Shown here: piece after piece, positions 13,529 to 64,000 of the stretch
Position numbering within the stretch: the first letter of the stretch is position 1
How the letters are laid out: every line of letters begins with the position of its first letter
From: Psammoneis japonica
Taxonomy: Eukaryota
Assembly: GCA_008632985.1 (NCBI GenBank)
Contig: QPGO01000081.1
Location: 62,001-126,000, forward strand
Reading direction: 5' to 3'
DNA length: 64,000 nucleotides
The notes under the pieces: generated by a model
Seen by the model: the letters and a program-made list of their open reading frames with translations, nothing else
What the model was told of the DNA's origin: nothing
Database searches by the model: none
Translations under genes and position numbers: made by a program

Positions 13529-13710
13529 CTGTCCTCATCCAGTGCCAGAATCGGGGAGAAGACCCATCACCTGTTGAACCACGCACGCACGTTGAACGTG
13601 CTGCAAGGGTTGGTTGTTGTTTTTCTTCGGTCACCAGCCTGTCTCATTCTTTCAAGATCGACAAAGACAAGCCGCTGTTGTCAGCACAGTTTAATCGCTG
13701 TAAGACCGCG

Positions 13711-14785: not shown

Positions 14786-14789
14786 CTCC

Positions 14790-21601: not shown

Positions 21602-21606
21602 CACAA

Positions 21607-32471: not shown

Positions 32472-32521
32472 CCCGACTGCCCGACCCCCGACTGCCCGAC
32501 TGCCCGACTGCCCGACTGCCG
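32472..32521. repeat. Short tandem repeat (cccgactg)n, about 5-6 imperfect copies
   Basis: Seen directly. Confidence 0.85.
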
Positions 32522-32639
32522 GACCGACACGAAAAAGTCTGCAATCACCAACCACTGAGTGGTCAATGAAATGCACGAAAAATGGGACAGAGCTGCCAGC
32601 TGCGCGCGGAATGTTTCCGCCGTGCTTCTCCCAGCAGTG

Positions 32640-42001: not shown

Positions 42002-44474
42002 CTACGAATTGCTAAACAATTGCGCGATTCACGTGCGCGAAGGTCGAATATCGTGCCCGAAGCAACAATCTCCCTTCGCGCAGCCAATCACGTAGAACCA
42101 CGTAGAACTTGTACCAAATGCCGTTTCGCCTTCCTTTTGATTTTTGGAGATCGAAATGGGTACGGTAGGGTATTTCAACCTTTGCTTCCAAGCAGCAGGA
42201 TAGATGATTCGCCGCGGTATCCAAGGCACGGTATTCCGATTTTGTTGTGCACGAGGGTAAGGCAAAAAGATTTAATGGAAGAGAAGTAATCTCACTTGAA
42301 GTGTGTGTACGTTATCCTTAGTTGACATAAACGGAAACATGGCTCGCCTTGATTCGCTTTGCAGTGTTGAAAGACGAGGAGAATGACCAGAAAGATGAGG
42401 GCAACAACACGATCAAAGAGGATAATGACTTCAACCGAAAACGCAAAGTAAAGAGTGACGAGTCTTCTCAAACTAGCAGTCACGACGATCACGCATCAAA
42501 ACCTGCGCCAACAGACTGGAAAGAGGGTGCGATATCTCAGTTGACTGAATGGGCTGGCCAAGACGTTGCTGGAAAGGTTGTTGCAATGCTGCTTTATTGG
42601 GACGAGAGTAGTAGCGAGGAACAAGGAAATGGTGGTAAAGTTGTGTATGAATGGATCCGTTCCTCCTTGACGTGCGCAAGAGCAGAAAGCTCGACAATAA
42701 AGAAAAAGAAAATGCCATGGTCAACCGATCGACCCGACTTTTTGAAGTTTGTCCTATACAAAGAAGAGAATGCTGACACGAGCATGGCGATCAAGGAAAT
42801 CCGCCAGGCCTTGGATCACAACAGGAGGAATCGTGCTCGAATAGGATATGCGGGAATGAAAGATAAACGGGTGGTCGCCTCTCAGTTCTGTACTCTGTAT
42901 TGCAAGGATGCCTCGGAAGTAGTCAAGATGAATCGATTGTTTGGACGAAACCATGGAGGAGGCCACTCTTCTCACAAGGGTGTGAGCGTAATGAGGGTAG
43001 GAAACTTTGAAAACGTCGAAAAGGAACTCATGTTGGGAATGTTGAAGGGAAAATTTTTTGATGTGGTACTAAGAAAGGTCGAAGTGCCGCAATTGGACTC
43101 GAATGATTCTCGTATTCACAAACGAAGCACTGTTTGACAACCGCAGCTACAAACTTGCGCGACTGTGGCTGCATCATTCAATTATTTTGGTGTGCAACGA
43201 TTTGGAAACTTCGCCCATAAAGGTGACGATGAACCATTTTGGTTCACGAAGGCTCGAAAGCAATGGAAGAATCAATTGACGACACGGAAGAAATCGAAGA
43301 CGATGAGGAGAAGACGAAAGCAAAGACTGTAAATGTAAATTTGTCCAAGATGGCCAAGACTGGTAAGCCTGTGAATATAGAATGGTATTATAAAAACGAC
43401 ACTAGTGCCAAGTTAGTTAAAGGAACTAGTCTAAAAGGGCGGTTGCAAAAGCAAGCAACGAAGCTTTGTCGCCGTGTGCCATTCACCGCCTTACCTACAC
43501 TCTTACAGCATGTTCGTGCCATCTGCCCAATGGCAAGAATTGAGTTTGAACTTTACGAGCATGAGCCTCCTCATCAGGAATGTGAAGCATCTTGAAGAAC
43601 ACACCAAGATCCTTGATGCAGTGGGTGTTGTTGTCGCTATGGACTTTGAACCATACTGTAGCGTGGGTTAAGGAATCGCAGTATCCTACTTGACGCGTAT
43701 CATGTTGTGAAGGAATTAAAATAGTAGACGCAAACGAGCCAGTGCCTTCAGGGGCACCAATCCCAAATGGTTGTATCCCTCAATGTTCTTCTCCGTCTCA
43801 TCTCTCATCACGATCTTCAATGCCGTCCAATCCCAATTCTTCCAGGGTCCCATCTTGATGATAGCAACAACATATTCATCCTATGAGTCATTATAACTAG
43901 GAGTAACTCATTGTTTGATTTCTTCACGAAACAAAGCGTTGTGAGCAATCATGTTGTGATGATCCAATTTTGCAGCGGGTCAAATTGCTTCAAGTTGTTC
44001 TTTTCAGAACTTACCAAATCTTCGTCACAGACATCGGGCCAGTAGCCCATTTTTCCCCTCTCTTATATATCGAGAAAAGCCTTTCGATCTTTGTGCTGTA
44101 AAAGGCATTCTCAAGAGTCTGCTTCATGTTTTTGGTGTCGCCGCAGCAGTTCGGCTTGTGCAGTTGCTCGACGATTTGACGGCGCGTTGGCTCTGGCATT
44201 TCTATGGCAATGTCCCTCTCGACATCTACTGGTATTACATCACCACTAGCAGCAATAGCAGTGTCCTCAGCGCTTCTACGGCGAGCGCGTTACAGATCCG
44301 CTCATGGTGAATGGTGACGGCGACTGCGAGAAAAAGATTTGGCTTTGACAGGGGAGTTCTAGTATGTTTTCTACGTAGTTCTACGTGATTTGCAGCGCGA
44401 ACGGTGAATGTTGCTTCGGGCGCGATATTCGAGCTTCGGGCACGTGTATCGCGCAATTGTTCAGCAATTCGTAG
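42002..44474. mobile_element. Non-autonomous TIR element (106-bp TIRs) carrying captured gene fragments (Pack-type)
   Basis: 42002-42107 is the near-identical reverse complement of 44369-44474. TA flanks both sides (42000-42001, 44475-44476). No transposase recognised inside. Confidence 0.8.
42349..43210 (+). pseudogene. Truncated, frameshifted TruD/PUS7 pseudouridine synthase fragment
   Basis: FLKFVLYKE, IGYAGMKDKR..ASQF, RVGNF and LGMLKGKFFDVVLR, then a stop at 43137, then FNYFGVQRFG at about 43177-43206. No C-terminal half. Confidence 0.8.
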
Positions 44475-44813
44475 TACATTGCCTGGCTTCGCTGATGACA
44501 TTTTTGCAGCACTTAGTTGTTGGCATGTCAACGAAAGGAAAACCCGCAATCCGCCATGAGCATTGGGAGTTGTTCCCATGGAGCCTCTCTTCACGATCTT
44601 CTGCGGCAACTCTTGTGACATGCGCGCATCATCCAAGCAACATGTTCAAAATGCACCTGCACAGTGCCTCAAAAAAGGAAGTTCAGCAATGAAAGAAAGT
44701 TTGGTGCACTCCTGTCTCCAGCACGCTGGGGGGCCTCATGCGAGCTTGTGCTGCACAATGAGCTCAACAATTGCAAATGTGGCTGACTGCTGCACATTCA
44801 GGGGCAGCTTGCT

Positions 44814-45825
44814 GGCTTGATGACTGACAAAAAAATCTGCTGTCTTTTGTGTGTGCATTCTCAATTTTTGCCAAGCTTCCAGAGGGGGGGAGGCACACAC
44901 AAAAAAGGCTCATCTCGCTCGTCTCTTCCAAGAAGCAGCATGGCATCAGGCATGACTGAAATTTTGCTGCAACAAACGTGTGACAGCCAAGCAAGTCAAT
45001 TGGGCTCAAGGGTTTGCAATTTGGAAAAAGAAATGACATGTCAGGCTTCTTTTTGGCGTGCTTCTTGTTTGCCTTTGTTTTGTCAATGCCAACCCTGCTG
45101 CAGCACTTGTCCCCACCTTGACTTTGTTTGTGCAGCCTTCTTTGCCCCTTTGTTCAAGCTTTTGCACATTTTTTCCCCATGTCTGAGACATTGTCCAGAG
45201 GAACTTCCATGCCACTGCTGTTCATGGCCAGCACACCACACTGCTGTGCTGCCAACAAACTGTCCCACACCCTCTTTGTGGTGGCAGCAGCAAAAGAGAT
45301 CCTTTTTGAAGGGACAACTGCACAACAGAGATGGGATCATGCATTTTTGTTGTGTCACCTCATTTCTTCCATTCCGTGGTTGCATTGTTTTGCAGCCTTT
45401 GACCAGTGGGTCAAGCTGCTCAGAGCAAATTTTTGCAATGACATCTCTTGCAGAGTGTGGGTCTCTTTGCCCCCTTTTGGCTCTTGGCTGCTGCACATTT
45501 GGGGTTGGCCTGCTGACAACTGGCTTGATGACTGACAGAAATCTGCTGTCTGGTGTGTGTGTGTTGTCAATCTTTGCCAAGCTGCCAGGGTGGGTGGGCA
45601 CCCAAAAGGAGAGCACCTCTCTTCCAAGAAGCAGAGTGTGGCATTGGGGGCATGACTGAAATTTTGCTGCAGCAAATGCACAAAAGCCAAGCAAGTTGGT
45701 TGGGCTCAATGGTTTGCAGTTTGGAAAAAGAAATGAAATGTCCTCAGCCTTCTTTGGTGCTTCTTGTTGTCATGTGCACCTTCCTTTTTTTATGACCAGC
45801 TTGCTGAACTTGGCAGGAGCTCAGT

Positions 45826-45870
<45 letters not shown>

Positions 45871-46270
45871 GCACTTTGTCAATGCCAACCCTCCAATCTC
45901 TGCCTTGGTTTTCTTTGCATTCTTTTTTCTTGCTTTTGTTGGTCAAGCTTTTGCACTTTTCTTTCCCAGATCAGCGAGACATTGTCCAGAGGGACTTCCA
46001 TGTGCCATTGCTGTTCATGACTGCTGCTGCTGCTGCTGCCAACAAACTCTGTCCCACCATCTCTGTGGTGGCAGCAGCAGCAAATGAGATCCTTTTTGAA
46101 GGGTCAACTGCACAACAGAGACAGGATCATTTTTGTTGTGTCACCTCATTTCTTCCATTCCAGGAGGGTTGCATCATTTTGCAGCCTTGGACTGGGTCAA
46201 GCTGCTCACAGCAAAATTCTTTTGTGATGACATCTTGCAGAGTGTGAGAGTCTCTTTACCTTTTGGCTCT
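44814..46270. repeat. Two diverged tandem units (about 710-750 bp) of a TpA/CpG-depleted repeat, with a (CT)n microsatellite at 45831-45868
   Basis: ggcttgatgactgaca..aatctgctgtc at 44814 and 45522, and gagatcctttttgaaggg.caactgcacaacagaga at about 45296 and 46086. Confidence 0.85.
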
Positions 46271-46576
46271 TGTCTGTTCATGCTGAGTCAAATGATGCAG
46301 GCGAGCTCGTCTCTTGTCCTAAAGGTCCTATGATGCCACAGTGCAAAGGAATTGCACTTGAGAATGACTAGAGCGCGGACATCAATTGTCAGCTACCACA
46401 CGAGTCAGTCGTTCCTTTGGAAAATCCAGTGTCCAACTGCATCAAAAAGACGACACGATGCACACACGACCCTAGTTGAATACACACTGAGCAAACACGG
46501 TCCGTTTCAATCAAAAATGTACAAACTTCTGCCCAAAACACACACATCATACACACATTGAGCTACTTGTTCATTA

Positions 46577-48455
46577 CTAATCGTCACTATTAGCCAAATC
46601 CCATCCTTCACCGCGATCAATGACATCCAATCGGTTGGGTCCAACTCCAATCCACCGCACGGGAACACCCAACAACTCTTGTACCCTCAGTACATATTTT
46701 TGAGCATTGGGCGGCAAGTCTTCAAAATTCTTGACTGCCGAAATATCTTCGGTCCATCCCGGCAACGTCTCGTACTCGACTTCCAACTCACTCAATTCCT
46801 TCAAACACGCCGGCATGGTGGCCAACTCCTTTCCCTTGTACTTGTAGGCCTTGCCGAGTTTCACCTGAGGCAACCCGGTCAGGACATCTAATTTGGTCAA
46901 ATTAATCGCCGTAAAGCCGTTGATGAGGCACGAAAATTTCATTTGCGGAATATCCAGCCATCCACAACGACGTGCCCGGCCCGTCGTGGTCCCGTACTCG
47001 GCACCGACGCGTCCCAAATGATGACCCACCGTGCCCTCTGCCATGTCCAGCTCCGTCGGAAAGGGTCCCTCCCCGACACGGGTGCAATAGGCCTTGACGG
47101 TACCGTAAATGCCACGCAGCTTTTTCGGAGACACACCCAAACCCGTCAAGACGGAACCCACGGATGGGTTGGATGATGTCACGTACGGGTACGTTCCGAA
47201 ATCAATATCCAGCATGGTGGCATTGGCACCCTCCACTAGAATCCGTTTGCCCTGATTGTATTGTTCATTCGTGTATTCAATCGTATCGAGCGTCATTTTC
47301 CCAACACGGTCGGCAATGGATTTGTAGTATTCCAGCTGTTCCTCGACGTTAATGTGCAGTCCGGGAAAGGCCCGTTGGTGATGATCGCAGAGGGAACGGA
47401 ATCTCCGTTCAAAGGTTTCCCAGTCTTTCAAATCCCCCACACGAAGACCGTTGCGTTGAATCTTGGACGCATACGCCGGACCGATCCCCTTTTTGGTGGT
47501 TCCAATCTTGTGCCGCCCGAGCTTGGCTTCCAACCGCCCATCGACGGTTTGATGAAAATCAAACACCAAGTGCGCGCGATCGGAAATAAAGACGCGGCCC
47601 TTGTGATCGATTTCGAGAGAATCCAATTCATTCAAAAACGATGGCAAGTGAATCACAACGCCATTGCCAATGACACACGTGGCCTTGGGGTTCAATACGC
47701 CACTGGGGAGCAAGTGGAATTTGTACTTGACGCCATCCACGACAATGGTGTGGCCCGCGTTGGAACCACCCGCGACGCGAGCGCAAACATCATATTCCTG
47801 AGTAGCAAATTTTGAGAGAGATAAATAGATAAAGCGTATAAGTGACACAACATGACGATTTTTCAATATGAAAATCAAAACAAGTCAATCCATCGAGCTT
47901 ACCTGACTTAGCATATCCACCAATTTACCCTTGCCTTCATCACCCCACTGTCCACCCAGCACAACATCGATTCCACTCTTTTTCTTGTACTTTGATGATT
48001 GAAAAGATGATACTGGTTTTCCACTCGCTAATTGCATGGAACCCAAGGTGGTTTCCAGTCGATTGAGCTGTATAAAAACAAAAACGAGCGCAAACGAAAC
48101 AAAAAAAATGAGGGTTTCGAAATAACAACATATTCTCGCACAAAACACGTGCGTTTTCAAGTCACACGTACCGTCTGTTTCATTTCAATCAGCATGCCCA
48201 TTATACTAGGTCCCTCACATGATGTTCTCGTTTCAGCATTGTCCGGTACAAGAGTAGCAGCCGTTCCCTATTTGTGCAATAATAATATGAAAACAAAACA
48301 CAAAATTTCGTGAGAAATCTCAGAATGCCAATGAATTCATTCAAAACTAGTTCAATTCTAATTATTTGGAACTCCATACATACCACTCCCGCAACACTGG
48401 CTGCCGCAGCTGCACCAAGAGTCTTTCCGTGCCGTGATAGGACACCACGAAACAT
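46577..48455 (-). CDS. purA: Adenylosuccinate synthetase; join(48455..48384,48267..48172,48067..47903,47797..46577), 517 aa
   Basis: Motifs GGQWGDEGKGK, GGSNAGHT, IGTTKKGIGPAY, EGANATMLDIDFGTYPYVTSS, GTTTGRARRCGWLD and TKLDVL. Three phase-0 GT-AG introns. Confidence 0.96.
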
Positions 48456-49146
48456 GGTGAACAACACACAACGTTTGCCTTTTATCGCAGTGTCAAGTGT
48501 TCGCTCTGTTGTTGATGTTGTTGATCGGATACTCTCTTTCGTACGATTCTACGTGGATTGTACGGTGGGTGGCGGGGGTGGGCACGCAAAAAAAAAAAAT
48601 GAAGGTTGGAGCACACGTCAGCCCGTGCGACTTGCAGACCGTTGAGCTTGACGAGTTTACTTGACGAGGCCGCGGAGTTGAGAGACGACGACTCACTCTA
48701 GACTACTAGGGCCTAGCCCTAGTAAGCTTGGGTCCTACCTCTAGCAACTTTGGTTGCAGGTAAGCCAAGATCAAAGAGGGAATAACAGCCTCTAGTCTCT
48801 AGTAGTAACAAAATAATGAGCAGATTCCCCTCTCTCTAGAGTGAGGTTTAGAAAAGGCTACAGTTGCTTGCGAGCACAGTGGTAACCAGATGATTCGTCG
48901 AGAACAAGCGGCATGAAAACTCGAAGCTCGACTTTTTACCTGTTGAAGTTCGCAGAGCCCATCGAGCTTTACACTTCAAACACGACTCGTTTTCCTACTT
49001 TAGGACGAAGATACTCACTACCCAACTCGCATTGCATCAAACAACACACGACAAAAGAATCGTCGCGACGACTCCTAAATCTCTTTTAAGGATTTCTAGA
49101 ACTTAGTACTCGTATTCATTTGCGGTAATGATACACAATATACTTT

Positions 49147-49914
49147 TTAAAAGAGAGGATCGCCAGTGACCCAGTTGTGGTGAATCATACCACCAATGGC
49201 AAGCATTGCAAGCCGTCCATTCTTGATTTCTTGGAGCTGCAATTTTTCCATGTCTTCCTTTGACTTTCCAACACCAAGACCCATGGGATCGAATCCAAGT
49301 TCACCAGGAACACGGGATGGATCACTAAACATGGTTTCCATGGTCACATTGCCCTTGTTGGTCCAGAATTCCAAAACACCCAACCACAGCACAATCTGAA
49401 GCATGGACGAGGCACCGACGACCGACGGAGCCATGTTGGAATCGGCGACAGGTTCCATACCGGGGAGAGTCACGTACTCCTGAAGGACAAAGCCAAGAAC
49501 GGCAAGCATGGAAACTCGGCCGTGCTTGATTTCGGATTCTCGCAACCACTTCATGTCGAAAAAATCCGAAAAACCCAGCGGATCAAACTCAACGTCACCG
49601 ACCCATCCAGCCGTGTTCTTGGGAGCTTCCAAGAATGGAACAGACTTGGACATGGCATTCAACGCAACCGATGGACCAGACTAATATGATTTGCGTGGAT
49701 AAGAAACAAGAAACAACAACAACATGAGCATCAGAAAGCTTTTCTGGGGACCCGGACATTATTCCAAAGTCCAAAGCAGAGGTGCGTTTTCGTTGAAAGG
49801 TTTGATTCTACTCCGTCTTGTATTTCCGGACAATATCACTATACTCACCTTGGATGCCGGAACAAAGGCCGAAGCAGAGCCCACAAGGGCGGCAGCGAGA
49901 AGTAGCTTCACCAT
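49147..49914 (-). CDS. Light-harvesting fucoxanthin-chlorophyll binding protein (Lhcr-like); join(49914..49849,49680..49147), 199 aa
   Basis: Signal peptide ending ASAF; FDPLGF, RESEIKHGRVSMLA, FDPMGL and QEIKNGRLAMLA. Confidence 0.95.
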
Positions 49915-50335
49915 GGTGCTTTCAACGTGATTGTTGGAATGCGGTCCGGTCGGCTTCGCCGCGGTGCTTCGCGTGGCGAGATTTGAGTTGAAGATTTTGG
50001 ATCGCGAAGCCTGTCCATCAACCGCAACTAGTATGAAGTATGTAGAATTGTACATACGTCTTTCGACTATACAAACTGGTACAATCGGCAGAATGCATCT
50101 TTTCACGGTCTGTACGTCAGTGCGCATGACCCATAACCCGGACGTTTTTCTTTTCCCGCCCGTCTGTACCACGTCAGCTACGTCAGATCAAAATCTGACA
50201 CGCACTTGGATTTCGAAATCACTGGTTTGACGTTTCTCCCACCACAAGAAGTGTTCTTATTTTTTTTCTTTTTGGAAAGTGCAGAACAAGGAGGCAAGAG
50301 CGGATCTTTCAATTAGAAACGGTACTGAAACCATT

Positions 50336-51810
50336 ATGAAGCTCTCTGTGACTCTGCTCCTTCCCTGCCTTGCGACAGGCTTTGTTTCTCCCGTGCAACG
50401 CCGCGCAAATGTTGTGGTCCCACCGACGACGACGGCTGCCGCTTCTTCCAATAATCCATCATCATCACAGCTTTATGCTTTTGTGGATATTAGCGAAAGC
50501 ACAGGCAGAGACATGGGTGCCATGAACGAATGGGCCGCCAACTATGGTGTGCAACGAGCCGATGGTTTTGAACTGACCAGTCAAGACGGTTTGGATTGGA
50601 GCGTCATGACGACCCAACCCATTGCGCAGGGTAGTCCGGTCTTGTTTGTTCCGAGCAACATGGTTCTGTCGTCGTCAAGGATTCGTCAAGAATTGAACGA
50701 GATTGGTAATGTCCAAGACGCGGTGGATCAATTGACGAGATTAGGGGCGGGCGATCAGATTGCTCAATTTTATCTCTTTGTCAAGATTTTGCACGAATAC
50801 GAAAAGGGTGATCAGTCTCCGTATTTTCCGTGGTTGAATTCCCTGCCGCGATTGTTTTACAATGCCGCCAGCATGACGGATTTTTGTTATGAATGTCTAC
50901 CTCCACTCGTATTTTCTCTTGCCAGGGTGGAACGAGTCAAGTTTGACAATTATTTTGATGTGCTCCAAAAAGTGACGGGTGTTTTGTCGGAACAAACCAA
51001 GGCCAACAAGGATTTAGCCAAGTGGGCCTACAATGTCGTTTGTACGAGATGTTGGGGAGCTGCCGATGAAAAGCAAATTGTTCCCATGGCGGATATGGTA
51101 CGTAGCGTTTGTTGCTCCAATTTTTGCTATTTTTGCCCTGCGCTTGAGTTTATTCACATCTCACCCATTGCGCACATGCTTATTGTTTTGTGTAGTTGAA
51201 TCACGGAACCGAGACAGAGGTGGCCATTAGTTACGACGAAGAAGGAAATTGCAACGTGTACGCCACAAAGGACGTGCCGGAAGGTTCTCCCTTGCGCATG
51301 TCCTATGGCGATCCCACCAACCCCAGCCAGTTGTTTGCAACCTATGGTTTCTTGGACGAATCGTCGCCCGCAACATTTTGCAAAATCATGACAATCAAGC
51401 CAAACCAGGAATTGAAGGATATTGGTTACGACTTTTCCCGAATGCTCTTTTACAGAGATACCGGCGAAATTTCACAAGAAGTGTGGGATTGTTTGCTCTA
51501 CAATATCCTGGAAAGCAACAAGGAAGTTCAGCAAGCCTTTTATCAAGCTCACATGTCGGGTGATGCGGAAACCAAGCAAAACATTCATCAGCATTACTTT
51601 TTGGAGACATCAACCAAACTCAAGGAGCACGTGGATACCTTTCTCAAGCAGCTTGATGATTTGTCGGGCAAGGCTGTCAACAAGGATATTAATGAACACC
51701 CACGCCTCCCACTCATTTTAAAGCACAATGAATTTGTCAAGAGCACATTTTTGAATGTCAAGGCGCGCCTTGATCCCATGGTGGAACAAGCCGCTGGTCA
51801 GCTTGTCTAG
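50336..51810 (+). CDS. SET-domain (Rubisco LSMT-like) protein, probably plastid-targeted; join(50336..51097,51196..51810)
   Basis: Signal peptide ending ATG-F; SPYFPWLNSLP, WAYNVVCTR, PMADM|LNH across the intron at 51098..51195, and SYG..NPSQLFATYGF. Confidence 0.88.
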
Positions 51811-52106
51811 TGCCGGTAGTAGAGACCCTCGTTCGATTTGCAGTCGATAACGACTGTATTAGTTTTAATGTTATATATAGGTTAGAAGAAACAGTTAGAT
51901 TGTTGTGCCTAGAGTAGGTCTACTCTCTAGTAGCTAGTAGAGCGAGTGTAGCAGTTCAGTTTCAACTCCGCGAGTCTCACGAGGAAACGCGACGCTATGT
52001 ACTTCTACGTACGGTACAAGACGACCCTCCTGCTCAGGGGTTAGGTTGGCGCTGGTACCTCCGGCAAAAAAAAGGGCGACAGTTTTTTTGTGGCACTGAT
52101 GCACCC

Positions 52107-53711
52107 ATGATGATGGAGGAGAACGCTGCGCTTTGCGATACCTGTCAGAAGCGTTTACAGTTATCATCTACTAGCATTCCCTCATCTAAAAATTATTGCA
52201 GTATCTGTTTGAATGTGTGGACTCTCCAAGAAAAGCAATTCCAGGAGGCGATTCAACAAGCGTGCCAATCCTATGGCGGCGTTGCCAAGAATGAATTTGA
52301 CTCTGTGACGGTTGCGATTTCGGGCGATGTGTGTTTTCGATACAGCCTGGCATCGACAAGCGATAACACAGATATTGCCTTGGACTATCTAGGAACGCTC
52401 AAGAATCATGTGAAACAATTGATACAGTCAAATCTGCCGACTTCCAACAACAGCAAGAACAAACACGGCAGTATGGGCTTGCACGTCATGATTGCATTTG
52501 ATGGAGCACCGAGACCCAACAATGTTGTTTTACCAAAAAGGAAAAAACGCAAACGCTTTCGTGGTGTCAATACTCTGATGGAACCTCTGCAAGGCGGTGA
52601 TCCGCGTGTAAACTTACAAGAGCGACTCGGCGATGCCTATTGGAATCCAAACGAAATTGCAACGCTCCTGAAAAAGGCACATCCTTCGTTAAAGCAAGAA
52701 TGGCAAAACTGGTTTCGTCATCAACAACAACAGACTGATAGTGAAACAGTTCGTCCTATCATTCATGTCGCTGCTTGGAGAAATCCAATTTACATCAAGG
52801 GCATGTACACCAAGAGTCGTCGCGACGTGTCTCAAACACCCTTTTACGTGGTACGAGACGGCAAATCGGTGCGTCTCGGCGTGACATCGGTTCAAGAAGA
52901 GATTTGCCCGCATATCGAACGAGCGTGTCGTGGTATTTCGTGTTTCAACAACAATAACGACTCGAATGTCGTATATGGCATGTGCAAATTTCATGCATCG
53001 GGACGAGAAGACATGGATGTGCGCATGATTTTACCAGATCCACCTCAAGAGGGAGTTGGAGGACGGCCCTTTTGTTGTCAAGTCTTTGATGCACACCATG
53101 TTCCATCTCGAGACGAGTTGCAAGAGACTACAAACGCGATTAATCATTTCTTTTCCGGAGAAACGAGTGACGGTGGCAACAACAAGAACGATACAAGCAA
53201 AGATACCAAAAGCAACGAGTCTATTGTAGACAAACCAGAGCAAAAGGAGCATTTACAAGAGCATCGACGGTACGGACAAAATCCATTGGGTGTGGACGTT
53301 TCGTCCTTGATACTTGGCACGGCAAGTGACTTTAGCAATCTTCAAGCAGAAACCGAAGCCAAGGTCAAGCATTACGAGTGTCTCTGTTGGTGCGAAACTT
53401 CAGTCAAGGACCAAGATGACTTGGAAAGACAATTATACTCTGAAACATTTCCATTGAAATTACAGCAACAAACACCGTTGCGCGTGCTTCATCGTCGTGC
53501 CAATGCGACTCGGGTCCGGCATGTTTTGACGTTACAACCAGTCTTTATCTCGTCAAATTGGTTTCGGCTGCATCTCTCAACAGAGGCTGGAACCTATGTC
53601 AAGGAATTTGTGCATGGTGACTTGGGCCGAACCACACCCAGTGTTGCGAGTTTGTTGCAATGCAAGACGGATATATTAGAGTTGGATTGTGAGGGAATTG
53701 CAATGTCGTAG
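52107..53711 (+). CDS. PUS10: tRNA pseudouridine synthase Pus10
   Basis: GMYTKSRRDVSQTPF, FHASGREDMDVRM, QQTPLRVLHRR and AGTYVKEFVHGDLGRTTPS. Confidence 0.93.
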   Translation: MMMEENAALCDTCQKRLQLSSTSIPSSKNYCSICLNVWTLQEKQFQEAIQQACQSYGGVAKNEFDSVTVAISGDVCFRYSLASTSDNTDIALDYLGTLKNHVKQLIQSNLPTSNNSKNKHGSMGLHVMIAFDGAPRPNNVVLPKRKKRKRFRGVNTLMEPLQGGDPRVNLQERLGDAYWNPNEIATLLKKAHPSLKQEWQNWFRHQQQQTDSETVRPIIHVAAWRNPIYIKGMYTKSRRDVSQTPFYVVRDGKSVRLGVTSVQEEICPHIERACRGISCFNNNNDSNVVYGMCKFHASGREDMDVRMILPDPPQEGVGGRPFCCQVFDAHHVPSRDELQETTNAINHFFSGETSDGGNNKNDTSKDTKSNESIVDKPEQKEHLQEHRRYGQNPLGVDVSSLILGTASDFSNLQAETEAKVKHYECLCWCETSVKDQDDLERQLYSETFPLKLQQQTPLRVLHRRANATRVRHVLTLQPVFISSNWFRLHLSTEAGTYVKEFVHGDLGRTTPSVASLLQCKTDILELDCEGIAMS

Positions 53712-54562
53712 TTATAGAAGGAACATTCAAGATGAAAAGGGTTGGTGATTGCCCTGTTGGTTGTCTTAAAATTTTGGTTGACGCCGCAACACTCGAAGAA
53801 ATTGCCATGTCATTGTAAATGTCGGAATGAAAAAAATCGCCTTGAGCTTGGAGCAACACCACTGGAATTCACACCAGTGTCTCGAGCAAAGTCGGAATCC
53901 AGCACTTGTGTTGGAAACACATGTCAACGCCTTGCGCAAAACGGACAAGTCTTGACTCAGTTCATGGCACTCTTGTTGTCGAAAGCGTTTGCCACTGTTT
54001 ACATTGTGGTTTGAGATTGTAGCCTGTGTTGCATCTCGCTCGCTCGACTTTGGAGGCTTGCCTGGACTATGCGGACGAAACGCGAAAAGCTCGAAAACAC
54101 CGGTGCGATTGCGTGTACTGTATCCTACATCAACCCCCCTCTTTCTACCGTACAAAGACACAAAACAGAAATACAGTCGTTTGATGAAAGGCCCCAGAGC
54201 ATTGTTGACATGGTATTGCCCCTCACAACATGTTTCCAAAGTCTCAAACGGTTCTTTTATTAGTCCCTGCCTGCATCTATCGTGCATAAAAAGATATTTT
54301 GGGTTGCTTTTATTCAGGGCCCTAGGCGCCCAATCTTCCATCTTGGTCCCAATTCGAGAGATCGATCTAGGCCTACACTCTAGTCCCAGTTATACTTGTA
54401 CTGTAGATCCTCTCTTCATTCCGAACAATAATCCGTAGCTGTGATAAAAAGCACCTTCTTTTGTAACCACAAACGAAATATCAATTAACTTTGGCGACTA
54501 TTTTATGCACATAACATATAATGCCAGGTCACCCCCCTACAAGCCCAAATCCCCGTTTTTGT

Positions 54563-57500
54563 TCATGTGTTGTTTTTTGACATGGCTATTGCGATATCCA
54601 AAGCTTCGGTGGAAGTCACATCTGAGACATCTCGAGGAACCGGCGAATAATCTGAGTCCGAACCGTCATCGCCACCCTCGTCTTGCTGCTGCCCATCCAA
54701 TGCAGCCGCACTTGAAAACTGTGGAGGTTGATCTTCCCATTCTTCCAAGTCTTTTGCGTAGCCTGAATACATGATATCTTGAGGATCCTGTTGCTGTGCA
54801 TCCATATCTTCCAAGGATTCGACATGACTGGTGTAAGGTGCATCGTCCTCCACATACTCAATACTCTCGTGAAGTTCTTGTTGTTCCTTTTCATAACGTT
54901 GTCGTTCTGCGAGATTCTTTTTATGCAGGTGAAAAAGCCCAAAGCCAGCAAGAATAACAACGGCTAGGCCGGCAAACGTGGCAGACAAAATGACTGCAAG
55001 GTTCCTTGAGTTGTCATCCGAGTCATTGTTGTCTGTTTCAGTTGTATTCTCCAGAGTATTAACACCCAAGATCCTCATTGGAGAATTGGGATTGATTACC
55101 CACAGATTTCGTTGCAAATCTCCATTTCGAATAGCCATGTCCATTCTGTTGGTGTACAAAACTCTAGACAGGTCGGCGTCTTCACCTTGGTCCAACTCGA
55201 ATATAAAAGACGCCGAAGCCGATTGACAAAGAAATGATTCTTCTTGCCCGTCTGGGCACTCCTTGTCGCGAATACCATTGAGTCTCCCACTCTCTTGGAT
55301 GTAGCTGACCAATCGGCGTTTCACAAGGCGACGGCGTCGACCATCAGCTGTCACAACCTGTTCGGCTGTTATGTCGTAGGCTTGCTCCAACTGGTTCCAA
55401 TTCAAACTACCCACGGACAAATCCGCAGCTCGTAATCCAACACTGTTGCCAATGTCAAACTCTGAGGCCACCCGGACTTGGTTGGAGGGCAACACGATTG
55501 TTGTTGGCATTGGACTAGGCGAGGTGTTTGGAGGGAGCGTAGGAGGTCCAGTGACATTTTCGACAGAGTAAACCTGTGCCTTGGATTGCTCACAAACAAA
55601 CTCCAGATTAGCCAATTGCTCCTCGGTGACATTTCGGTGTTGCTGCGGATAGTAGGATCCATATATGTCAATCTCATCTATGCCGTTGTTTGATGCTGTG
55701 GCAAAAAAGGCGTAATTGACACGCAACAGCAGATCCAAGCTTGCAAACTCTACGTCTTTGTAAAAACCGGTCCACAAGTAAAGAAAGTCAGCATAGTCCT
55801 CTCTGCTAAGGAACAAATCGCGGTTACTGTCCGCCAGGGCCAGTGCATACAAGCATTCCAGCCGCTCCTCCGTTATGGTAATATTTGGCTCTGGAGTAAT
55901 GGTGGTGCCATTTGTGATGCTAGTCTCGACCACTTGTTGAGTTTGACTGCAGAATTCAAACAAGTCCTCCAGCATCATGCCTTGAGGACCGGTCAGTGGA
56001 TAATAGTTTGCTCCCGAAACGGGCACTTCACCCGATGCAAACGCTTCAAAATTGTCTTTGACTTCGTCGGGTAAGTCGCCATACTCTTCAATTTTGGAGC
56101 TGTCGAGTAGAAAGTTAATATACTTGACGTATTCGTCCTTGTCCAAGCTACCATTGGAATTGGCATCGGCCAAGGCAAGCCCAGATAAGCACCGCAACTC
56201 GACAACCGTATACGTTGCAACGTTGGTCACGGGCGTTGGAGATGAAGTAGGAAACTCCCCAGGCTCCGGTAACGCCGCCCTTGTTACAAAGCATAAAGAT
56301 TCCAAGTCTCGAAATTGGTCGAGCGTTGCGTTTTGTCGCGGATAGTAGGAACCAAAAATGTTGATGGCTCTCGCAAACATGTTTCGTTCCATGGAGAACT
56401 TGGTAAACACGGCCTTCAACACGGCCGACAGATTTCCAAAATTTAAATCTTTGGTACGAGACAAGAAGCCGACAAATGCGGCGAATTCTTGGGAATCCAT
56501 CCACGAATCCCCATTGTCATCTGCAAACGCCATGCTAAACAAACACTCCAACGTTTCCACCGTGGCTTTGTATCCAGAGCTTGGTACAGTCGGTTGATTA
56601 CCCGTCAAGGTAAAGACAGCGTCGGTGGTTTCACTGCAGAAATCCAGCAACAAGGATATCTCTGCCTGGGAGGCGTCATTTGGAAACCTTGCGCTCTGCA
56701 CGCTTAGTCCATTGTTCGAGTTGTACACAGTCTGGAGAGATACTGGTAGATTTCCAAATGATTCCTCATCGATTTCATTATTGGAAATGACACGAACATA
56801 ATCAAGAAATTCCTGCCGGCTCAACCGTAGATTGAAATCTTCATCTGAAAAGACGAGTGCAAAGAGGCATTCCAGTTGATTCAAAGGAAAGACTGAATAG
56901 TTCTGTTGACGAGAAGGTGTAGGGGGTGGAGTGCGGGACGGCGGAGTTGCGGAGGGTGGAATGGGGGACGGCCGAGTGGGAGACGGCCGATTGGGGAACG
57001 GCGGAGTGGAGGAGGGAGGGGTTGGGGACGGCGGAGTGGAGGAGGGAGCAGTGGGTGACGGTGGAGTGGGTGACGGTGGAGTGGGAGACGGCGGAGTTGC
57101 GGAGGGAGGAGTGAAGGATGGCGGAGTTGCGGAGGGTGGAGTGGGGGACGGCGGAGTTGCGGATGGAGGAGTGAAGGACGGCGGAGTTGCGGAGGGTGGA
57201 GTGGAGGACGGCGGATTTGTGGAGGGTGGAGTGGGGGACGGCGGAGTTGCGGAGGGAGGAGTGGAGGACGGCGGATTTGCGGAGGGTGGAGTGGAGGACG
57301 GCGGAGTTGCGGAGGGAGGAGTGAAGGACGGTGGAGTTGCGGAGGGTGGAGTGGAGGACGGCGGAGTTGCGGAGGATGGGGTGGAGGAGGAAGTGGCATC
57401 TTCAATAGCCGCAAGGGTGTCTTCACAAGTCGACACTAAATGAGCTTCGTTGACGTCGTCTCTTGTAATGTTCCAGGCAAACTTGGTTTCATCTGGTGTC

Positions 57501-57790
57501 CTGTCGAGAAGAAAGGTCATCACAAAATTGCCTCGCAAGACAACAGGGAGATCGTCCCATGTCCTTGCTTTAGGAAAGGCCTTGTTGGACAGCTGCTGAA
57601 CAAAACCAAGGTATTCGGTGCGATCCAAAAACAGATCGCCATTACCATCGTTGGCCAACATGGCCTCGTAACACACATCGGTTGTCGTTTTGAGAGCGCG
57701 AGTATCGATACCGGTGAATTCAGATAGCCCATTGCAACAAGCAATTGCATTTGCCGCCAATGCTAGAAACGTTGTTGCATAGCACCTCAT
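54563..57790 (-). CDS. Type I membrane/cell-surface protein: signal peptide, five Cys-flanked EF-hand-like repeats, Pro/Ser/Thr linker, C-terminal TM (about 1075 aa)
   Basis: Signal peptide [19 protein letters not shown]; five copies of C...(L/M)..(A/N/S)D.N.D..L...E(Y/F)..(F/Y); [25 protein letters not shown]; acidic tail. Confidence 0.8.
56930..57385 (-). repeat. Coding minisatellite, 15-bp unit encoding xTPPS (about 30 copies)
   Basis: Seen directly in both DNA and translation. Confidence 0.92.
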
Positions 57791-58299
57791 AGTGAGGCTC
57801 GAATCTTTGCTGTTGACCAAATCAAAACGATTTTGTGTAGGTCTGATTTTGCGGGAATTGGAAACGCAAGTTCTGTGCATCAGAATGATGGTCGTCCGAA
57901 ATTTTCGTTTCGACAGTGACCAAGAGATCCATGGATGATGGACAAAATTGGGACAACAGAACATATTTGAAAATAGCATGAACTTTGAAATCGTGTGAAC
58001 GTACAGTACATGTTTCACAACGGAGACTTTTTCAATGTTTATAATTCATGCATCAAAATATTTATAAAACCTAAGTATTGATTTTTGTGTAGTTCTCTTG
58101 TAGTTTTTTCCGTTCTGCTGTCGTTCCCCTCCGGCTCACTGCTTGTGTTACTCCCGGGCGATCGCTGCAGCAGGGCCCTCTCTATCTCTGTCTGCTCTGC
58201 TCTTAAAGTGCCATGTCCTGGCAGCCAGTGGCCAGCAGCTCTGTGAATCAATCATGAAAATCACACGCGACTCTTTTTACAGCCACTGCCTGGTGGCCA

Positions 58300-61200
58300 T
58301 CTATGCTGATGAGGGCGGAGGGGTGCATCGTTGCCACCACTTGGCTGAAAACAGCGGGTGTCCAGGCAGAAACCAAGCTCTCTCCACATCAGTGCCACCT
58401 GCAGTTTCTCACACTCACAAAGTGGCATTTCCATCTTGGAATTTTGAATGTCACTGGTGGGTCATTGAAAAACAAAAAAACCAGCACAGGTGCACACCCA
58501 GAGCTCTCTTGCATTTGAAAAAATGCAGAGGTGCAGCCAACAAAGGCTGGTGTCTTGGCTTGTGTCAGAGTGCAGGGCACGCTGTGCTGGTTTCTTTGCA
58601 TCACAAACTTTGTTGTTGCTCTGGCACTTGCCTTTGCAATGACTGCAACAGGCATGCCTGCCGCAGCCACCGATGATGCTGCATTTTTCCCGCATCTGTC
58701 AGCTGCCCACAGCTGACAGCTGACTGCACAGATGCGCACACTGCAAAATGTGATTCCTCGCACAAGACCTGCAACAGGCTGCAGGAGCACCATGTGACCA
58801 AGTTGTGTGGTGCAACTGGCCATTGTGCAAGTGACTTGCATTGTGCAAAGAGTCTGTGCAGGAGATCTGTGAGGTGCAGCGCCGAGCACGGCTGATTCTG
58901 AGCATGCAGGAGCTGCAAAACTCCATGTGACATGGTGCGGTTTGAAGTTTCTGGCTGCTCTGCTTCTTGATCACAAAATGAAGGACCTGATGCAATGCAA
59001 GGAAACCTGCCAAAAATGACAGAACAACAATTTGCAGGATGATTTGCCTCTTTCACAATCTTTTTTGCAGAAGACTTTGCATCTTGAAGAAGAGTGCTGC
59101 TGACTGCAACAACATGGCCAGCATGCTGAGCCCTCAACAAGGATGAATCATTTGAATCTGACAGCTTCATTGCTCCTCTGGTTGTGCTTCATGGTGTGTT
59201 GCATTGTCAACATTTTTTCAAACAGTCATTTTAACCTTGTGATGTCAACACAGCGAGAGAACAAGCAACAAAAACAACCACATTTGTTGCCAAGACAGCA
59301 TTGCAAATGGCCCAAATGGTGGCCCGGCTCTCCAAATTTTCAAAGCTGGCTGTGAACTTGCAAGCAGATCAATCAGAGGCACTCAAGCAGCAGTGATCCA
59401 TTTTTTTCTGCTGCTCTCTGTGGGGCAGAACTCTCTCCACTGGTGGGGCCCTGCTGCTGCCAGGAGTGGAGAGGCTTTCCACACACACTCCACTGGCTGG
59501 AAAGCAGAGAACAGCAGCAGAAAGCATCGCACACCATTGACGGACCCTCAATCTGAATGGCAAAGCACATTTTTGGTGCACAATGATGTCACAGGTGGAA
59601 CTTCCGGAGACAAAATTGGGCCAGTGCATTTGAAATCACCAAAAATCAATCGCCAAATTCTGTCAATTGCCCCACTTGTTGAAACGACATCGCCAAAGTG
59701 CAGGTTGGTTGTCAATGACGTTGATCATTTCACAACTTAACCAAACAATGTTTCTGTCCCGTTTGTCGCCAACCCGGACATTTTGTCGCAATTCGCGTCT
59801 TTTCGCGACAAATCATCAATTCATTTAAGAAAATGTCGCCAAATGCGACAAAATGCCGTGTGTCCCTGGAACACGTCTGCAACAAAAATGGGCCAAACTC
59901 TGAAATTTGGGGAAGCGAAAAGCACTGCTCAAGGGCATGATGCTGTCATTGAGATTTTTGATTGATTCCATGAAAGGCCCCACTTTGGTGGAGACTGCTT
60001 GGGAGCATGCAATGGGTGACTGTGTGACCACCCTTCTTGTGGTGCAATGGCTTGTGGATTGTCCAATTCCTTGATTTTGAAAGGGCAATGCTGTGGAGCC
60101 TTCTGCCAACCTGCAACAATGCTCCATGACAATGTTGTAGCTTGGGTGCTTTGGAAAAATAAAAAAACTTAAGCGCCACTTTCCCCAGTCTGAGGAGTTG
60201 GGAAGAGAGCTGTCTCTTGGTGTGCAGACATGTCATGCAATTTTTTGAAGGACAAGCTCAATTGCCAGCTGTTTCACAGGGCAGAAAAGCACAGCAATGA
60301 ACTCAACTGGTCTCTGGTCAAGTTGAGCTGATGCAGTGTCATCTTGGGAGCTTGTGACCCAGCAATGAACCACTGGCTTGCAGAGAGAGACCCAGAGATG
60401 ATGTGCAGGAACACGTGCATGGCAGCAAAATCAGCTGGCAAGCTGTCTTGTCTCATGAGCAAGAGGCAACTCCGGTTAACTCTTTTGCACTGTGCAGTGG
60501 CCAGGGTGGTGAGGTGAAGTTCCAACAATGGCGCAGCAAGTTGTTTTGGATCCCTGGTCTTGAATTTGTTGATGTGACCTGCCAGGAGCTCAAGTCCACC
60601 AAGCAATGTGCAGCACACAAGTCGCGGACCATGGTTGCTGTGTGTTTGTGATTTTCATCATGCACTTGGCAGCTTCGTGGCTGTTGAGAAGAATGGACTC
60701 TTTCACAGCACCAGCAACAAGAACACTGAACAGTTTGTGTTTCCTGACCTTCGCAGTGCGAAAGATGGGTGTCCGTGGCAAGCCTGATGACAGACACACC
60801 AGCAAAAGTTCCACTCTGTCTGTCAAGTCAATTTGCAAGGGTCGCTTGCACTCCAGAGCTTGAAGCTTGCCCTGCACAAGGACTTTGGACCATGCAAGTC
60901 TCGTGGCCATGCAGAACAGGATGTGACATTGGCACCTCTCAAGACAGTTGCTTTGATTGGTTGTCAGTGGTGTGCAGCTTGCCTGGTGGGTGAGTGCCAG
61001 TGGGGTGGACAGAAGCATGCTGATCTGGGTGTGCATCCTCCTCAACTCAAGTGTCTCTGGAGTTGGTGCAAGAATCCTGAGCAGCTTGAAAAGTTTGTGG
61101 GTTCACTCTGCATCATTTCACTCATTGACTTTCTTTGTGAAGGCCATCTGCGCCCCATTCTTTGGACTGCTGCCACATCTTTGACAATGCATCACCCAAA

Positions 61201-62050
61201 AATGATGGCTGAATGTGGCAACCACAATGTTGTTGTCAACAAGCTGCACCTGGTGGTGAACAAAATTGGCCTCAGCGATGTGGAGTTCCCAGAGGACTGT
61301 CCTGTTGCAGTGCTGTTGCGCTGGTCTGAGCAAGCCCATGTGTTGACTTCTGCCATCACAATGTTGAGATTGCTCCAGCAACATCGGCCCACATGACATG
61401 GTCAGTCTCATCAACGCCATCCAGCAACAGTCAGAACTCATTGCAACATGCAGGCAACAATCAGTTGGAAGACAGAGGCTTTGACATCACTGCAAGGTGC
61501 CCCATCTGTTCCCAGCTGATCAAGATTGTAAATCTTGGCAAGCACCATGTGTCAACAAACCAAGCTTTGCAGCTGGCATTGGGCGATCTGTCCAAGATGC
61601 AGCGAAAATTGGCTGAAGGTGTTCTGCACACCTCCAGGATCACACGCAAAGCAATGAGCCAAGCTGCCCCATGGTGGGCCACCTGCAAAGCACTCTGCAC
61701 TTGACCTCATCATCCAAGACACAAAGCTGCCATCACCCAAGAAGAACAAGCCACCGCCACCCAAGAAGCAGCCACCCTGGAGAAGCTGCTTTGGGCATCA
61801 TGCTGGTTGGAGCCAGAGCTCCTCCAGCCAAAGTGAGTGACTTGTTCCATTTTGGCACTGAGGCTGAATGTGTGGCCAGCAGCAAGCAAGACAGAACCAA
61901 AGACATGAAAGTGAGCATGTTCATTTGTGACACCTGTGCAATGCCGGCCATTTCTTCATGCAGGCAGGCACTCTTGACTTGAGCAAAATCATCCATTGCC
62001 TTGCATTGATTCAAAGGAAGGGTCAACCTTCAGGGCCTGCATGGAGCTGG
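58300..62050 (-). mobile_element. Highly degenerate putative second YR (DIRS-order) retrotransposon
   Basis: Remnant motifs in shifting frames: PSANFRCILDRS, LAKIYNL..SDVKA.F and LVDNNIV (RT-like, about 61.2-61.65 kb); TFCSVRICA and MQHHRW (YR-like, about 58.65-58.76 kb). Near-total TpA and CpG loss. Confidence 0.4.
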
Positions 62051-62163
62051 TGGAGCAGGTGATGATGGATGAGCAGCATGCTGATCTGAAAAAGAAGGAG
62101 ACCTCGATCGACCCCGTCTGTTGGAAGTTGGGGACGCTGTGGACAACAAATGCAGCATGTTCA

Positions 62164-62622
62164 CTTGAAATGTTTGAGTGGAGCATGGGACCCCAGTGAC
62201 TCCAAATCCTGAGTGAAATCAACCTGTCTTGCATTGGGAAAGAGGGTGGCAGACAGAGCACAAGACCAAGAAAGGCAATGGCAAGCTTGTGCACCCTTCG
62301 GAAGCAAAGAAACAAATGCTTGAAATGTTTGAGTGGAGCAGGGGACTCCAGCAACTCCAAATCCTGAGCAAAACCAACCTGTCTTGCATTGGGAAAGAGG
62401 GCGGCAGAGCACAACACCAAGAAAGGCAATGGCAAGCTTGTGCGCCCCCTTCAGAAGCAAAGAAACAAATGCTTGAAATGTTTGAGTGGACCAGGGGACC
62501 CCAGCAACTCCAAATCCTGAGCAAAACCAACCTGTCTTGCATTGGGAAAGAGGGTGGCAGAGCACAAGACCAAGAAAGGCAGTGGCAAGCTTGCGCACAC
62601 CCTTCGGAAGCAAAGAAACAAA
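62164..62622. repeat. Tandem repeat, three units of about 153 bp
   Basis: cttgaaatgtttgagtgga starts at 62164, 62319 and 62472. Confidence 0.92.
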
Positions 62623-62842
62623 CAAAACCACAGCAGGATTTTTTGGAAAAGGCCAAGAAACAACTTGGCTTTAAAAGGCACCAGTTGTCATTAAAAGGCA
62701 TCAGTGATTGGGAGCACATGGTTGGCGACAGTGCTTGAAAGCTTTGGAAAAGGGCAACTTTCGCCACATGTCGGCAATGATTCCTCGACTCTGCATGCCG
62801 CTGCGGCTCAGCTGTGTTCCGTTCGACGTGGCTTGCAGTCTC

Positions 62843-63855
62843 CATCGTGAGTCTTTGCATCGACCGTTCTTCGAGACTCACGATGGAGCGGAGAGCAGAG
62901 AGTGGTTTGACTTTCAAGGGCTGAGATGAGCGCGCGGATGCAGGAAGTGGTCAGTCCCGCCTGCTCGTGACTCAGTGCTTTTCTGCGGTGAAAATTGCGT
63001 GGAGATCCGAAGATGACAAAAACGGCCTGATGACTTCCGCTGACAACAACATCAACTGCATGCAATGTGCATTCGATGTTCTGCAATGCATGAATTAACA
63101 ACTTCAAGCATTGGATGCAGTTGCTTTGATGAATTTCACCAAAATGACACTGAGCCCTGCATTGCGTGCAAATCCACAGCACTCCGCACGACTCGTGTTT
63201 CGTTTCGGACAACTTCCAATTCGTCAAAGCAACTGCATCTAATGCCCAAAATGGTTTGTTCAAGCATTGACGAACACAGAATGCATGTTGCATGCAATTG
63301 ACATTGTTGTCAGCGGAAGTCATCTGACCGTTTTTGTCATAGTCGGATTCCTGCGCAATTTTCACCGTGGGGAAGCACTGAGTCACGAGCAGGTGGGACT
63401 GACCATTTCCTGCATCCGCGCGCTCGCCTCAGCCCTCAAAAGCAGAACCGCTCTCCGCTCTCCGCTCCATCGTGAGTCTCGAAGAACGGTCGACACAAAG
63501 ACTCACGATGAATTGACACCTTTGAGCATTGGATGCAGTTGCTTTGATGAATTTCACCAAAATGACGCCAAGCCCTGTGTTGCGTGCAAATCCACGGCAC
63601 TCCACACGATTCATGTTTTGTTTTGGATGACTTCCAATTCGTCAAAGTGACTGCATGCAATGCCTGAAATAGCCAATTCAACTGTCAACGAACACAGAAT
63701 GTACATTGGGTGCAGCTCATGTTGCAGTTAGCGGAAGTTGTCTGACCGTTTTTGTCATCGTCGGATTCCTGCGCAATTTTCACCGTAGAAATGTGCTGAG
63801 TCACGAGTGGGCGGGACTGACCACTTCCTGCATCCGCGCGCTCGCCTCAGTCCTC
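62843..63855. repeat. Composite inverted and tandem repeat (A' B A B A)
   Basis: About 62843-63080 is the reverse complement of about 63272-63510; about 63090-63430 is repeated at about 63510-63855. Confidence 0.8.
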
Positions 63856-64000
63856 AGCACATTCTCGCGTGAAAAAAAACACGTGCAGCAATCATTCTTG
63901 GCCGTTCAGATTAGAAGCCTGCACATGCAATCGATCCTCCTTGCTTTGCTGCACGTTGCATGTGATGATGTACTTCCAATTCACATGCCCCCATGCCCTG

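Follow-up and report, generated by a model that had tools for sequence, protein, structure and literature searches.

We analyzed a 64,000-nucleotide stretch of the genome of the diatom Psammoneis japonica (contig QPGO01000081.1, positions 62001–126000, or C82:62001-126000 in our numbering; hereafter, the window) within an assembly of 91 Mb and 597 contigs, and report a repeat-confined loss of the dinucleotide TpA that depends on flanking bases. Across the window, the observed/expected (o/e) ratio of TpA is ~0.1 in repeats and ~0.5 in genes, with sharp edges between them. The last part, 58304–64000 (no strand assigned), is a patchwork of decayed repeats from which TpA has been erased: 19 TpA remain where base composition predicts 362 (o/e 0.052), and TG, CA, and CG stand at o/e 1.81, 1.67, and 0.41, respectively. 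The nearest upstream TpA is at 58302, the erasure runs on for ~28 kb past the window end (stretches L102 to L104, mostly o/e < 0.2), and no Rfam match was found in the tract. The patchwork includes an old repeat at 58168–58880 (no strand assigned; copies 73% identical downstream on the same contig, in L102 and L104), another at 59876–61183 (no strand assigned; a copy 70% to 77% identical on contig C86), a TpA-free 153-bp tandem repeat in 3 copies at 62164–62622 (plus strand), and 2 copies of an inverted-repeat element described below. The neighboring host open reading frame (ORF), 54563–58045 on the minus strand, provides an undepleted control (TpA o/e 0.49, CpG 0.91).

The surviving TpA of the tract stand in the contexts TTAA (8), GTAG, ATAG, GTAC, and TTAG (2 each), and ATAA, GTAA, and CTAA (1 each). 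YTAR accounts for 11/19 against an expected share of 0.234 (p = 0.0013) and TTAA for 8/19 against 0.074 (p = 3e-5), a 5.7-fold enrichment; expected shares were taken as the share of the given flanks among all TA, TG, CA, and CG steps. The original prediction, which had read these survivors as the imprint of a TAY target motif, gave identical counts. The 8 TTAA (59231–63098, no strand assigned) also lie where it had placed them, with TpA at 59232, 59738, 59826, 60170, 60477, 62672, 62692, and 63096, the T of the last having been put at 63097, and the 7 TTAA that it cited outside the tract are all present within 1 base. An outer T (position −3) or A (position +2) is found at 12/19 survivors, with a pool share of 0.46.

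Because the tract had been picked after looking, the survivor test was rerun on other tiles. In 50 TpA-poor 1-kb tiles of other stretches, YTAR makes up 89/181 of the TpA (expected 0.228; p = 7e-15) and RTAY 7/181 (expected 0.242); in TpA-poor tiles earlier in the window, YTAR is found at 69/168, whereas undepleted tiles of the same stretches go in the opposite direction (467/2948). The YTAR excess thus holds against flank composition; context-independent survival, which would have overturned the predicted bias, is not what these tiles show. The emphasis laid on TTAA was overstated: the 5.7-fold enrichment of the tract becomes ~2-fold elsewhere, with 1.9- to 2.1-fold for TTAA in the larger samples, level with CTAA (1.9 to 2.3) and CTAG (1.2 to 2.1). 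TTAA as a special protected word, or as a piggyBac target, is unsupported, CTAA and CTAG behaving alike. For 0, 1, and 2 outer T(−3)/A(+2) bases, the TA share of YR steps in depleted tiles is 4/2926, 10/1823, and 7/274 at RTAY and 38/2497, 88/1817, and 43/404 at YTAR (the last being TYTARA), corresponding to ~3- to 4-fold higher survival per side, whereas in undepleted tiles the outer bases have little effect. As judged from just 9 arbitrary 10-kb stretches, 30/180 tiles of the genome have TpA o/e < 0.2 and 140/180 have at least 0.35.

The rule was measured on the copia long terminal repeat (LTR) retrotransposon at 14510–21602 (minus strand; LTRs 14510–14786 and 21327–21602; ORF 15076–20499; RVT_2, E = 1.8e-23), represented by 30 loci, 94% to 96% identical, from the best 37 scored of 475 candidates. 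Two of these, L010 and L036, both on contig C114, have 98% of their TG/CA states in common and were therefore duplicated after mutation; L036 was dropped as the duplicate from the fit and the per-copy statistics, leaving 29 copies. At 206 TA-origin sites in the 30 copies, the cells read TA 1246, TG 1835, CA 2682, and CG 57, and at 491 CG-majority sites CG 12440, TG 697, CA 917, and TA 0. The per-copy medians are 0.80 for TpA converted, 0.115 for CpG decay, 0.004 for other transitions, and 0.001 for transversions. A>G change amounts to 0.011 after A, 0.008 after C, and 0.006 after G, against ~0.4 per strand at TA, and of the 240 sites at which both TG and CA occur, 161 have practically no CG. 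Processive same-strand runs were looked for and not found in the copia copies, adjacent converted sites sharing their strand state at 0.529 against a null of 0.525, and states are shared between copies no more than site frequencies predict, L010/L036 excepted. Conversion therefore hits both strands, and each copy independently, yields TG and CA, and requires a 5′ T. TpA created by later mutation, for which the original prediction called for a correction, do not explain the survivors: TA cells outside TA-origin or TA-majority sites number 29/1308 (~2% new TpA), and the TG>TA rate is 0.002 (where TG or CA is fixed, 11 of 25307 cells read TA).

The 2 LTRs of the window copy differ at 17 positions (5 CA/TG, 1 TA/TG, 5 CpG, and 6 other), and hence the change came after insertion. 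Across copies, TpA conversion correlates with CpG decay (rho 0.53, p = 0.003; rho −0.24 with transversions), and it was not predicted by the TpA level of the flank (rho 0.14, p = 0.48), nearly all of the 28 flanks being already depleted. One copy, L026, has just 26% of its TpA converted, even though its flank is depleted (o/e 0.14) and it shows no reduction in transversions. On both strands, decayed elements at 13243–26783 contain numerous long open frames that overlap one another; under the genetic code, TA>TG/CA can remove stop codons and never make one, so such frames are expected.

Survivors do not by themselves give the direction of the rule. A preference for RTA leaves the same YTAR survivors as one for TAY, and TAY as read from survivors was rejected as ambiguous with RTA; outcomes were scored per strand instead. 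Among copia sites with TAY on one strand only (n = 98, counting only asymmetric sites converted in 5 or more copies), the TAY strand was hit more at 80, less at 16, and equally at 2 (p = 2e-11), and the excess holds in either orientation (66/79 and 14/19 sites). Mean survival at sites with TAY on 0, 1, and 2 strands was 0.42, 0.18, and 0.15 (34, 101, and 40 sites; 175/206 TA-origin sites retained after removal of those with variable flanks), and in non-coding parts alone 0.43 vs 0.21 (12 and 33 sites). A log-linear fit of conversion over 201 sites in the 29 copies, with A as the reference base, gave relative rates at +1 of 2.5 (interval 1.8–3.5) for C, 3.0 (2.0–4.1) for T, and 1.1 (0.7–1.6) for G. 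At −2, C, G, and T stand at 0.5 to 0.6, that is, A is converted ~1.8 times faster; T at −3 is slower (0.45, 0.32–0.53); and at +2, C, G, and T reach 1.6 to 1.8, A being protective. The strand term of 0.90 (0.76–1.02) indicates that the 2 strands are hit equally, and TAT is converted as fast as or faster than TAC.

The 5′ T is strict, CA being hardly used (CA>G 0.008), and C and T at +1 each add ~2.5- to 3-fold. Written for the strand on which A comes to be read as G, the preferred substrate is approximately 5′-(A/G)-A-T-[A]-Y-(not A)-3′. These results support TAY as a soft strand-specific bias (2.5- to 3-fold) inside a wider rule. Of the predicted TAY preference, the strand choice is borne out by outcomes (80/98 sites) and rates do differ by flank, as a per-context check had been proposed to reveal; its derivation from survivors did not follow, and TAY is no target motif, for TAR is converted too, with a mean survival at YTAR sites in the family of 0.42. 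The match to Tyr codons that had been pointed out is a coincidence, copia survival being 0.17, 0.27, and 0.22 at codon positions 1 to 3. As T at −3 and A at +2 are one base pair seen from the 2 strands, the flank rule may in part reflect the shape of the duplex and not a reading of bases.

Two further families repeat the copia survival order, with TTAA and CTAA/TTAG at the top and ATAT and ATAC at the bottom; neither has a Pfam match. In 9 copies of the element at 21501–26420 (plus strand), which we take to be a tyrosine-recombinase retroelement, survival is 0.35 for TTAA, 0.30 for CTAA/TTAG, 0.014 for ATAC/GTAT, and 0 for ATAT; in 15 copies of the presumably LINE-like (long interspersed nuclear element-like) element at 4601–7400 (plus strand), it is 0.44 for TTAA, 0.29 for CTAA/TTAG, 0.007 for ATAC/GTAT, and 0 for GTAC. 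A second subfamily of the 21.5–26.4 kb element, framed on L047, had too few close copies for a replicate.

The element at 62915–63438 (no strand assigned), which we take to be a miniature inverted-repeat transposable element (MITE), has inverted ends (62917–63436) and reads CA at both termini (62915–62916 and 63437–63438), whereas 5 copies elsewhere are TA-rich (o/e 0.86–0.95) with TA at both ends. Of 30 scorable TA sites of the copy L072, the window copy retains 1, a TTAA, and is changed at the other 29, in nearly every case to TG or CA. In a second, partial copy at 63508–63856 (no strand assigned), the terminal TA (63855–63856) has become CA in the window and TG in the contig C337. Since no stage of a non-autonomous DNA element is reverse transcribed, conversion of the MITE including its terminal TA places the change on genomic DNA. 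The near-intact copies L071, L072, L074, and L077 (cores 1501 to end-1500) directly adjoin TpA-erased DNA, and are thus either young insertions or escapees from the process.

C337 looks like the other haplotype of the window, with which it was compared in 13 alignments, 2 of them paralogous. TA sites differ between the two at 61/141 in TpA-poor tiles and at 25/414 in normal tiles. The surviving TTAA sites are slow substrates, some of which still differ between haplotypes: C337 reads TTGA at 60477–60478; at 60940, 63437, and 63515 it shows TTAA against TCAA or TTGA in the window, and the MITE end at 63437 keeps its TA there. In the TpA-normal tiles of 42151–57388, the 25/414 differing sites are TA/TG or TA/CA, alongside 20 other transitions in 10475 bases; they may reflect either an edge effect or low activity outside repeats. 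Contigs of a separate run, X1, also carry the TpA-poor text (for example, 59902–62249 with 5 other letters) and differ at the TTAA/TCAA sites 59232 (reading C) and 60940; as X1 may derive from the same sample, it speaks only against base-calling error.

Elsewhere in the window, small TpA- and CpG-erased islands lie between intact genes at 32501–34500, 38001–38500, and 44501–46000, and the ORF at 49147–49680 has its best match among fucoxanthin chlorophyll a/c proteins (E = 1e-89). The 1160-aa control ORF at 54563–58045 (minus strand) contains a 30-bp tandem repeat coding for a Pro/Ser/Thr-rich stretch (56924–57388) and, by eye, EF-hand-like motifs.

We consider it reasonably probable that the repeat-confined TpA mutator is adenine deamination in methylated chromatin by an enzyme of the TadA/ADAT fold. 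Such a mutator would turn A:T into G:C almost only at TpA, on genomic DNA and on either strand, and conversion would build up over many cell divisions after an element inserts. YTAR, which presents TAR on both strands, is converted most slowly, above all when an outer T or A is present (TYTARA), and these sites are therefore what remains as a tract approaches saturation, as it does at 58304–64000. Chemically, adenine may be deaminated by a zinc deaminase to hypoxanthine, which replication then reads as G; recruitment may be through CpG-methylated silent chromatin and not through a sequence; and the role would be transposon defense through missense changes, with Tyr becoming Cys or His, and through the removal of signals that contain TA. 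TadA-derived editors, in the accessible parts of the reports, prefer YA (10.1101/2024.11.19.623682), and one TadA variant prefers YAC (PMC13109818). Searches of the genome returned 1 ADAT2-like locus on contig C26, 1 TadA-like locus on C38, and 2 PF02137 loci on C40 and C79, an ordinary-looking set. Side observations from these searches are a gene joining a deaminase domain with a 2OG-Fe(II) oxygenase (DIOX_N + 2OG-FeII_Oxy) at L149:313-1785 (minus strand) on contig C79; 2 separate short genes with an adenosine-deaminase (editase) domain (L154:1934-3474 and L155:2171-3887), with no RNA-binding domain in the frames scanned; and a large methyltransferase set, with 27 matches to the C5 DNA methylase family, 5 of them full-length on 5 contigs.

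Several observations weigh against the deaminase reading. The fit comes from one family, in which the sense strand carries TAY at 79/98 asymmetric sites. Families with few copies show a weaker strand choice, with CTAC/GTAG converted on the TAC strand at 0.58, 0.66, and 0.76, but at 0.42 in the MITE, and GTAA/TTAC converted at 0.50 to 0.59 on the non-TAY strand in 3 sets; site selection pulls all of these shares toward 0.5. In the MITE alone (41 TA sites), YTAR protection has the right direction and is not significant (17/88 vs 36/279 kept, p = 0.16). The tRNA loop of TadA is C-U-A-C-G, unlike the observed TAT speed, at least that of TAC, and the favored A at −2. Engineered TadA takes CA, as far as the accessible part of that report goes (10.1101/2024.11.19.623682), whereas CA>G here is just 0.008. 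The likeness to TadA raised by the original prediction is a lead only, as amphioxus ADAT2, a natural DNA-editing enzyme, prefers GAA and not TAY according to the accessible part of its description (PMC10354150), and sequence cannot tell an altered A from its partner T. Finally, no deaminase-family expansion was found among the scored candidates, a search that left aside other deaminase-fold families, endonuclease V, and Y-family polymerases.

An outside chance belongs to an error-prone, Y-family-like polymerase working in repeats, which would insert G opposite template T after a T:A pair with the same flank effects. It would give the same products on both strands from unmodified bases, and polymerase eta is known to make WA>WG errors; yet AA>AG at 0.011 against ~0.4 per strand at TA, together with transversions at 0.001, is far more selective than what is known of polymerase eta. 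We give a rather slim chance to the altered base being T, with a thymine modification (for instance, oxidation to 5-formyluracil) at 5′-RTA pairing with G and producing T>C. In the duplex, a TAY of the A strand and an RTA of the T strand are one site, all counts fit equally, and the fusion of a deaminase with a 2OG-Fe(II) oxygenase at L149 is a candidate, though only that, for such chemistry. Against it, this genome offers no positive evidence of thymine modification; a Tet_JBP search gave no match here, but as it gave none in any control genome either, it carries no information on the point. It is improbable that adenine at TpA is first modified in repeats, for example by N6-methylation (6mA), and then deaminated or miscopied, the flank rule being that of the modifying enzyme. 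Such a process would have a counterpart in the CpG decay of the same copies; however, eukaryotic 6mA is known at ApT in genes and not at TpA in repeats, and we are aware of no pathway by which 6mA would lead to A>G in DNA.

It is highly improbable that element RNA underwent A-to-I editing of the ADAR type and that reverse transcription then fixed the edits. The genome has 2 PF02137 loci, and ADAR favors a 5′ U, as stated in the accessible part of a preprint on Bigelowiella natans (10.64898/2026.01.13.699255). Both strands are nonetheless hit equally and mixed within one copy, with no one-strand A>G runs; the LTR pair differs; and the MITE is converted along with its terminal TA. In addition, G at +1 is disfavored here, whereas ADAR is known to favor UAG. 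The post-insertion, two-strand change largely refutes RNA editing, and ADAR-fold action on DNA in RNA:DNA hybrids would fall under the deaminase reading preferred above. There is hardly any prospect that no context rule exists and that the survivors reflect new TpA, piggyBac TTAA target duplications, composition, CpG decay, or base-calling error, since, although TTAA at 5.7-fold in the tract exceeds other DNA and 19 sites are a small sample, new TpA make up 29/1308 TA cells, CG-majority sites have 0 TA cells, CTAA and CTAG survive as well as TTAA, the contigs of run X1 (possibly the same sample) carry TpA-poor text, and TA-rich and TA-poor MITE copies coexist in one assembly.

Among 50 related copia loci in metagenomes, 47 have TpA o/e of 0.52 to 1.02, and 3 are depleted: L183 (0.27), L189 (0.13), and L174 (0.31). 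L183 and L189 are one family and count as one case. Together they show YTAR at 19/39, against 0.163 in the other 47 (p = 3e-6), conserved Tyr is read as Cys or His in both, and they are 94% alike, with 46/72 substitution events between them being TA/TG, TA/CA, or CA/TG. Their best match in the P. japonica genome is 65% over most of the query (best 40 of 375 candidates), and they are therefore probably from another species. L174 shows an intermediate TpA loss and Tyr to Cys/His, and its YTAR share is not significant (12/49, p = 0.09).

A-to-G hypermutation of chromosomal DNA as a genome defense is known from one preprint, without an enzyme, and the flank rule measured here is a fingerprint that candidate enzymes must reproduce; it can also be compared with the 231 de novo mutations of B. 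natans for a shared origin. TpA loss of ~80% in young transposons distorts repeat dating and leaves long false ORFs, and it erases the TA sites used by Tc1/mariner-type elements. A natural deaminase reaching chromosomal adenine, if true, would be of interest to base editing.

The TpA mutator signature has so far been reported only in one unrelated alga, B. natans, in one preprint without flanking context (10.64898/2026.01.13.699255). As described in its accessible part, de novo TpA>TpG/CpA mutations arise there at a ~1000-fold rate in integrated DNA of nucleocytoplasmic large DNA viruses (NCLDV) as well as of virophages; hypermutation is on in some lines only; and the enzyme is unknown, with ADAT2 proposed. 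The 2 systems are alike in that A:T>G:C occurs only at TpA in B. natans, yielding TpG or CpA by strand, and is confined to foreign or silent regions, and here changes fall almost only at TpA, on both strands, with repeats hit (o/e 0.05) and the next ORF spared (0.49). TpA-poor coding sequences in B. natans are, according to the same source, enriched for reverse transcriptase and DDE domains, which resembles the repeat-derived targets here. They differ in that the host here is a diatom, the targets are transposons and old repeats, CpG decays jointly, and the flank rule is resolved; in that TpA o/e of 0.05 to 0.1 here is near saturation, against the 0.45 given for the NCLDV region; and in that the rate in B. 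natans is a de novo one, whereas the present figure is a relative excess only (0.80 vs 0.004). The main text of the preprint contains no 'trinucleotide', 'context', 'diatom', or 'CpG' and no flank analysis (10.64898/2026.01.13.699255). Our literature search, in which most subscription papers fell outside the coverage, returned neither a flank rule nor any account of the process in diatoms.

Repeat-induced point mutation (RIP) of ascomycetes is likewise a repeat-focused, both-strand transition hypermutation with a dinucleotide preference. RIP creates TpA, whereas here TpA falls, stop codons cannot arise, and there are no same-strand runs; C:G>T:A change raising TpA was not observed (TG>TA 0.002). 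The RIP change is C>T, and the B. natans target is single-copy, both as given in the accessible part of the preprint (10.64898/2026.01.13.699255). Near-intact multi-copy MITEs persist here. RIP further depends on the pairing of homologous sequences and on a RID-type methyltransferase during the sexual cycle; P. japonica has C5-methyltransferase matches. Decay of methylated CpG (5mC) affects the same regions with the same products (TG/CA) and is correlated across the copia copies, but its sites are separate, and TpA loss reaches 80% alongside a CpG loss of 11.5%; DNMT5-dependent 5mC in diatom transposons is described in the accessible part of a published study (PMC9998398). TadA/ADAT2 and base editors share the A>G change, the editors having a 5′ pyrimidine preference, YAC in one variant, where the pattern here has a strict 5′ T, and ADAT2-like and TadA-like genes are present here; they depart from the P. 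japonica pattern in that, in the accessible reports, editors accept CA and amphioxus ADAT2 prefers GAA. It is a tentative and rather doubtful extension of these comparisons that diatoms possess a nuclear adenine deaminase dedicated to DNA and directed at methylated repeats, for which a 5′ T is strictly required and A-T-A-Y preferred, that this enzyme would naturally edit chromosomal DNA, and that the system would be the same ancient defense as in the rhizarian B. natans, and so an A-to-G counterpart of RIP across algae of the stramenopile, alveolate, and rhizarian (SAR) lineages.

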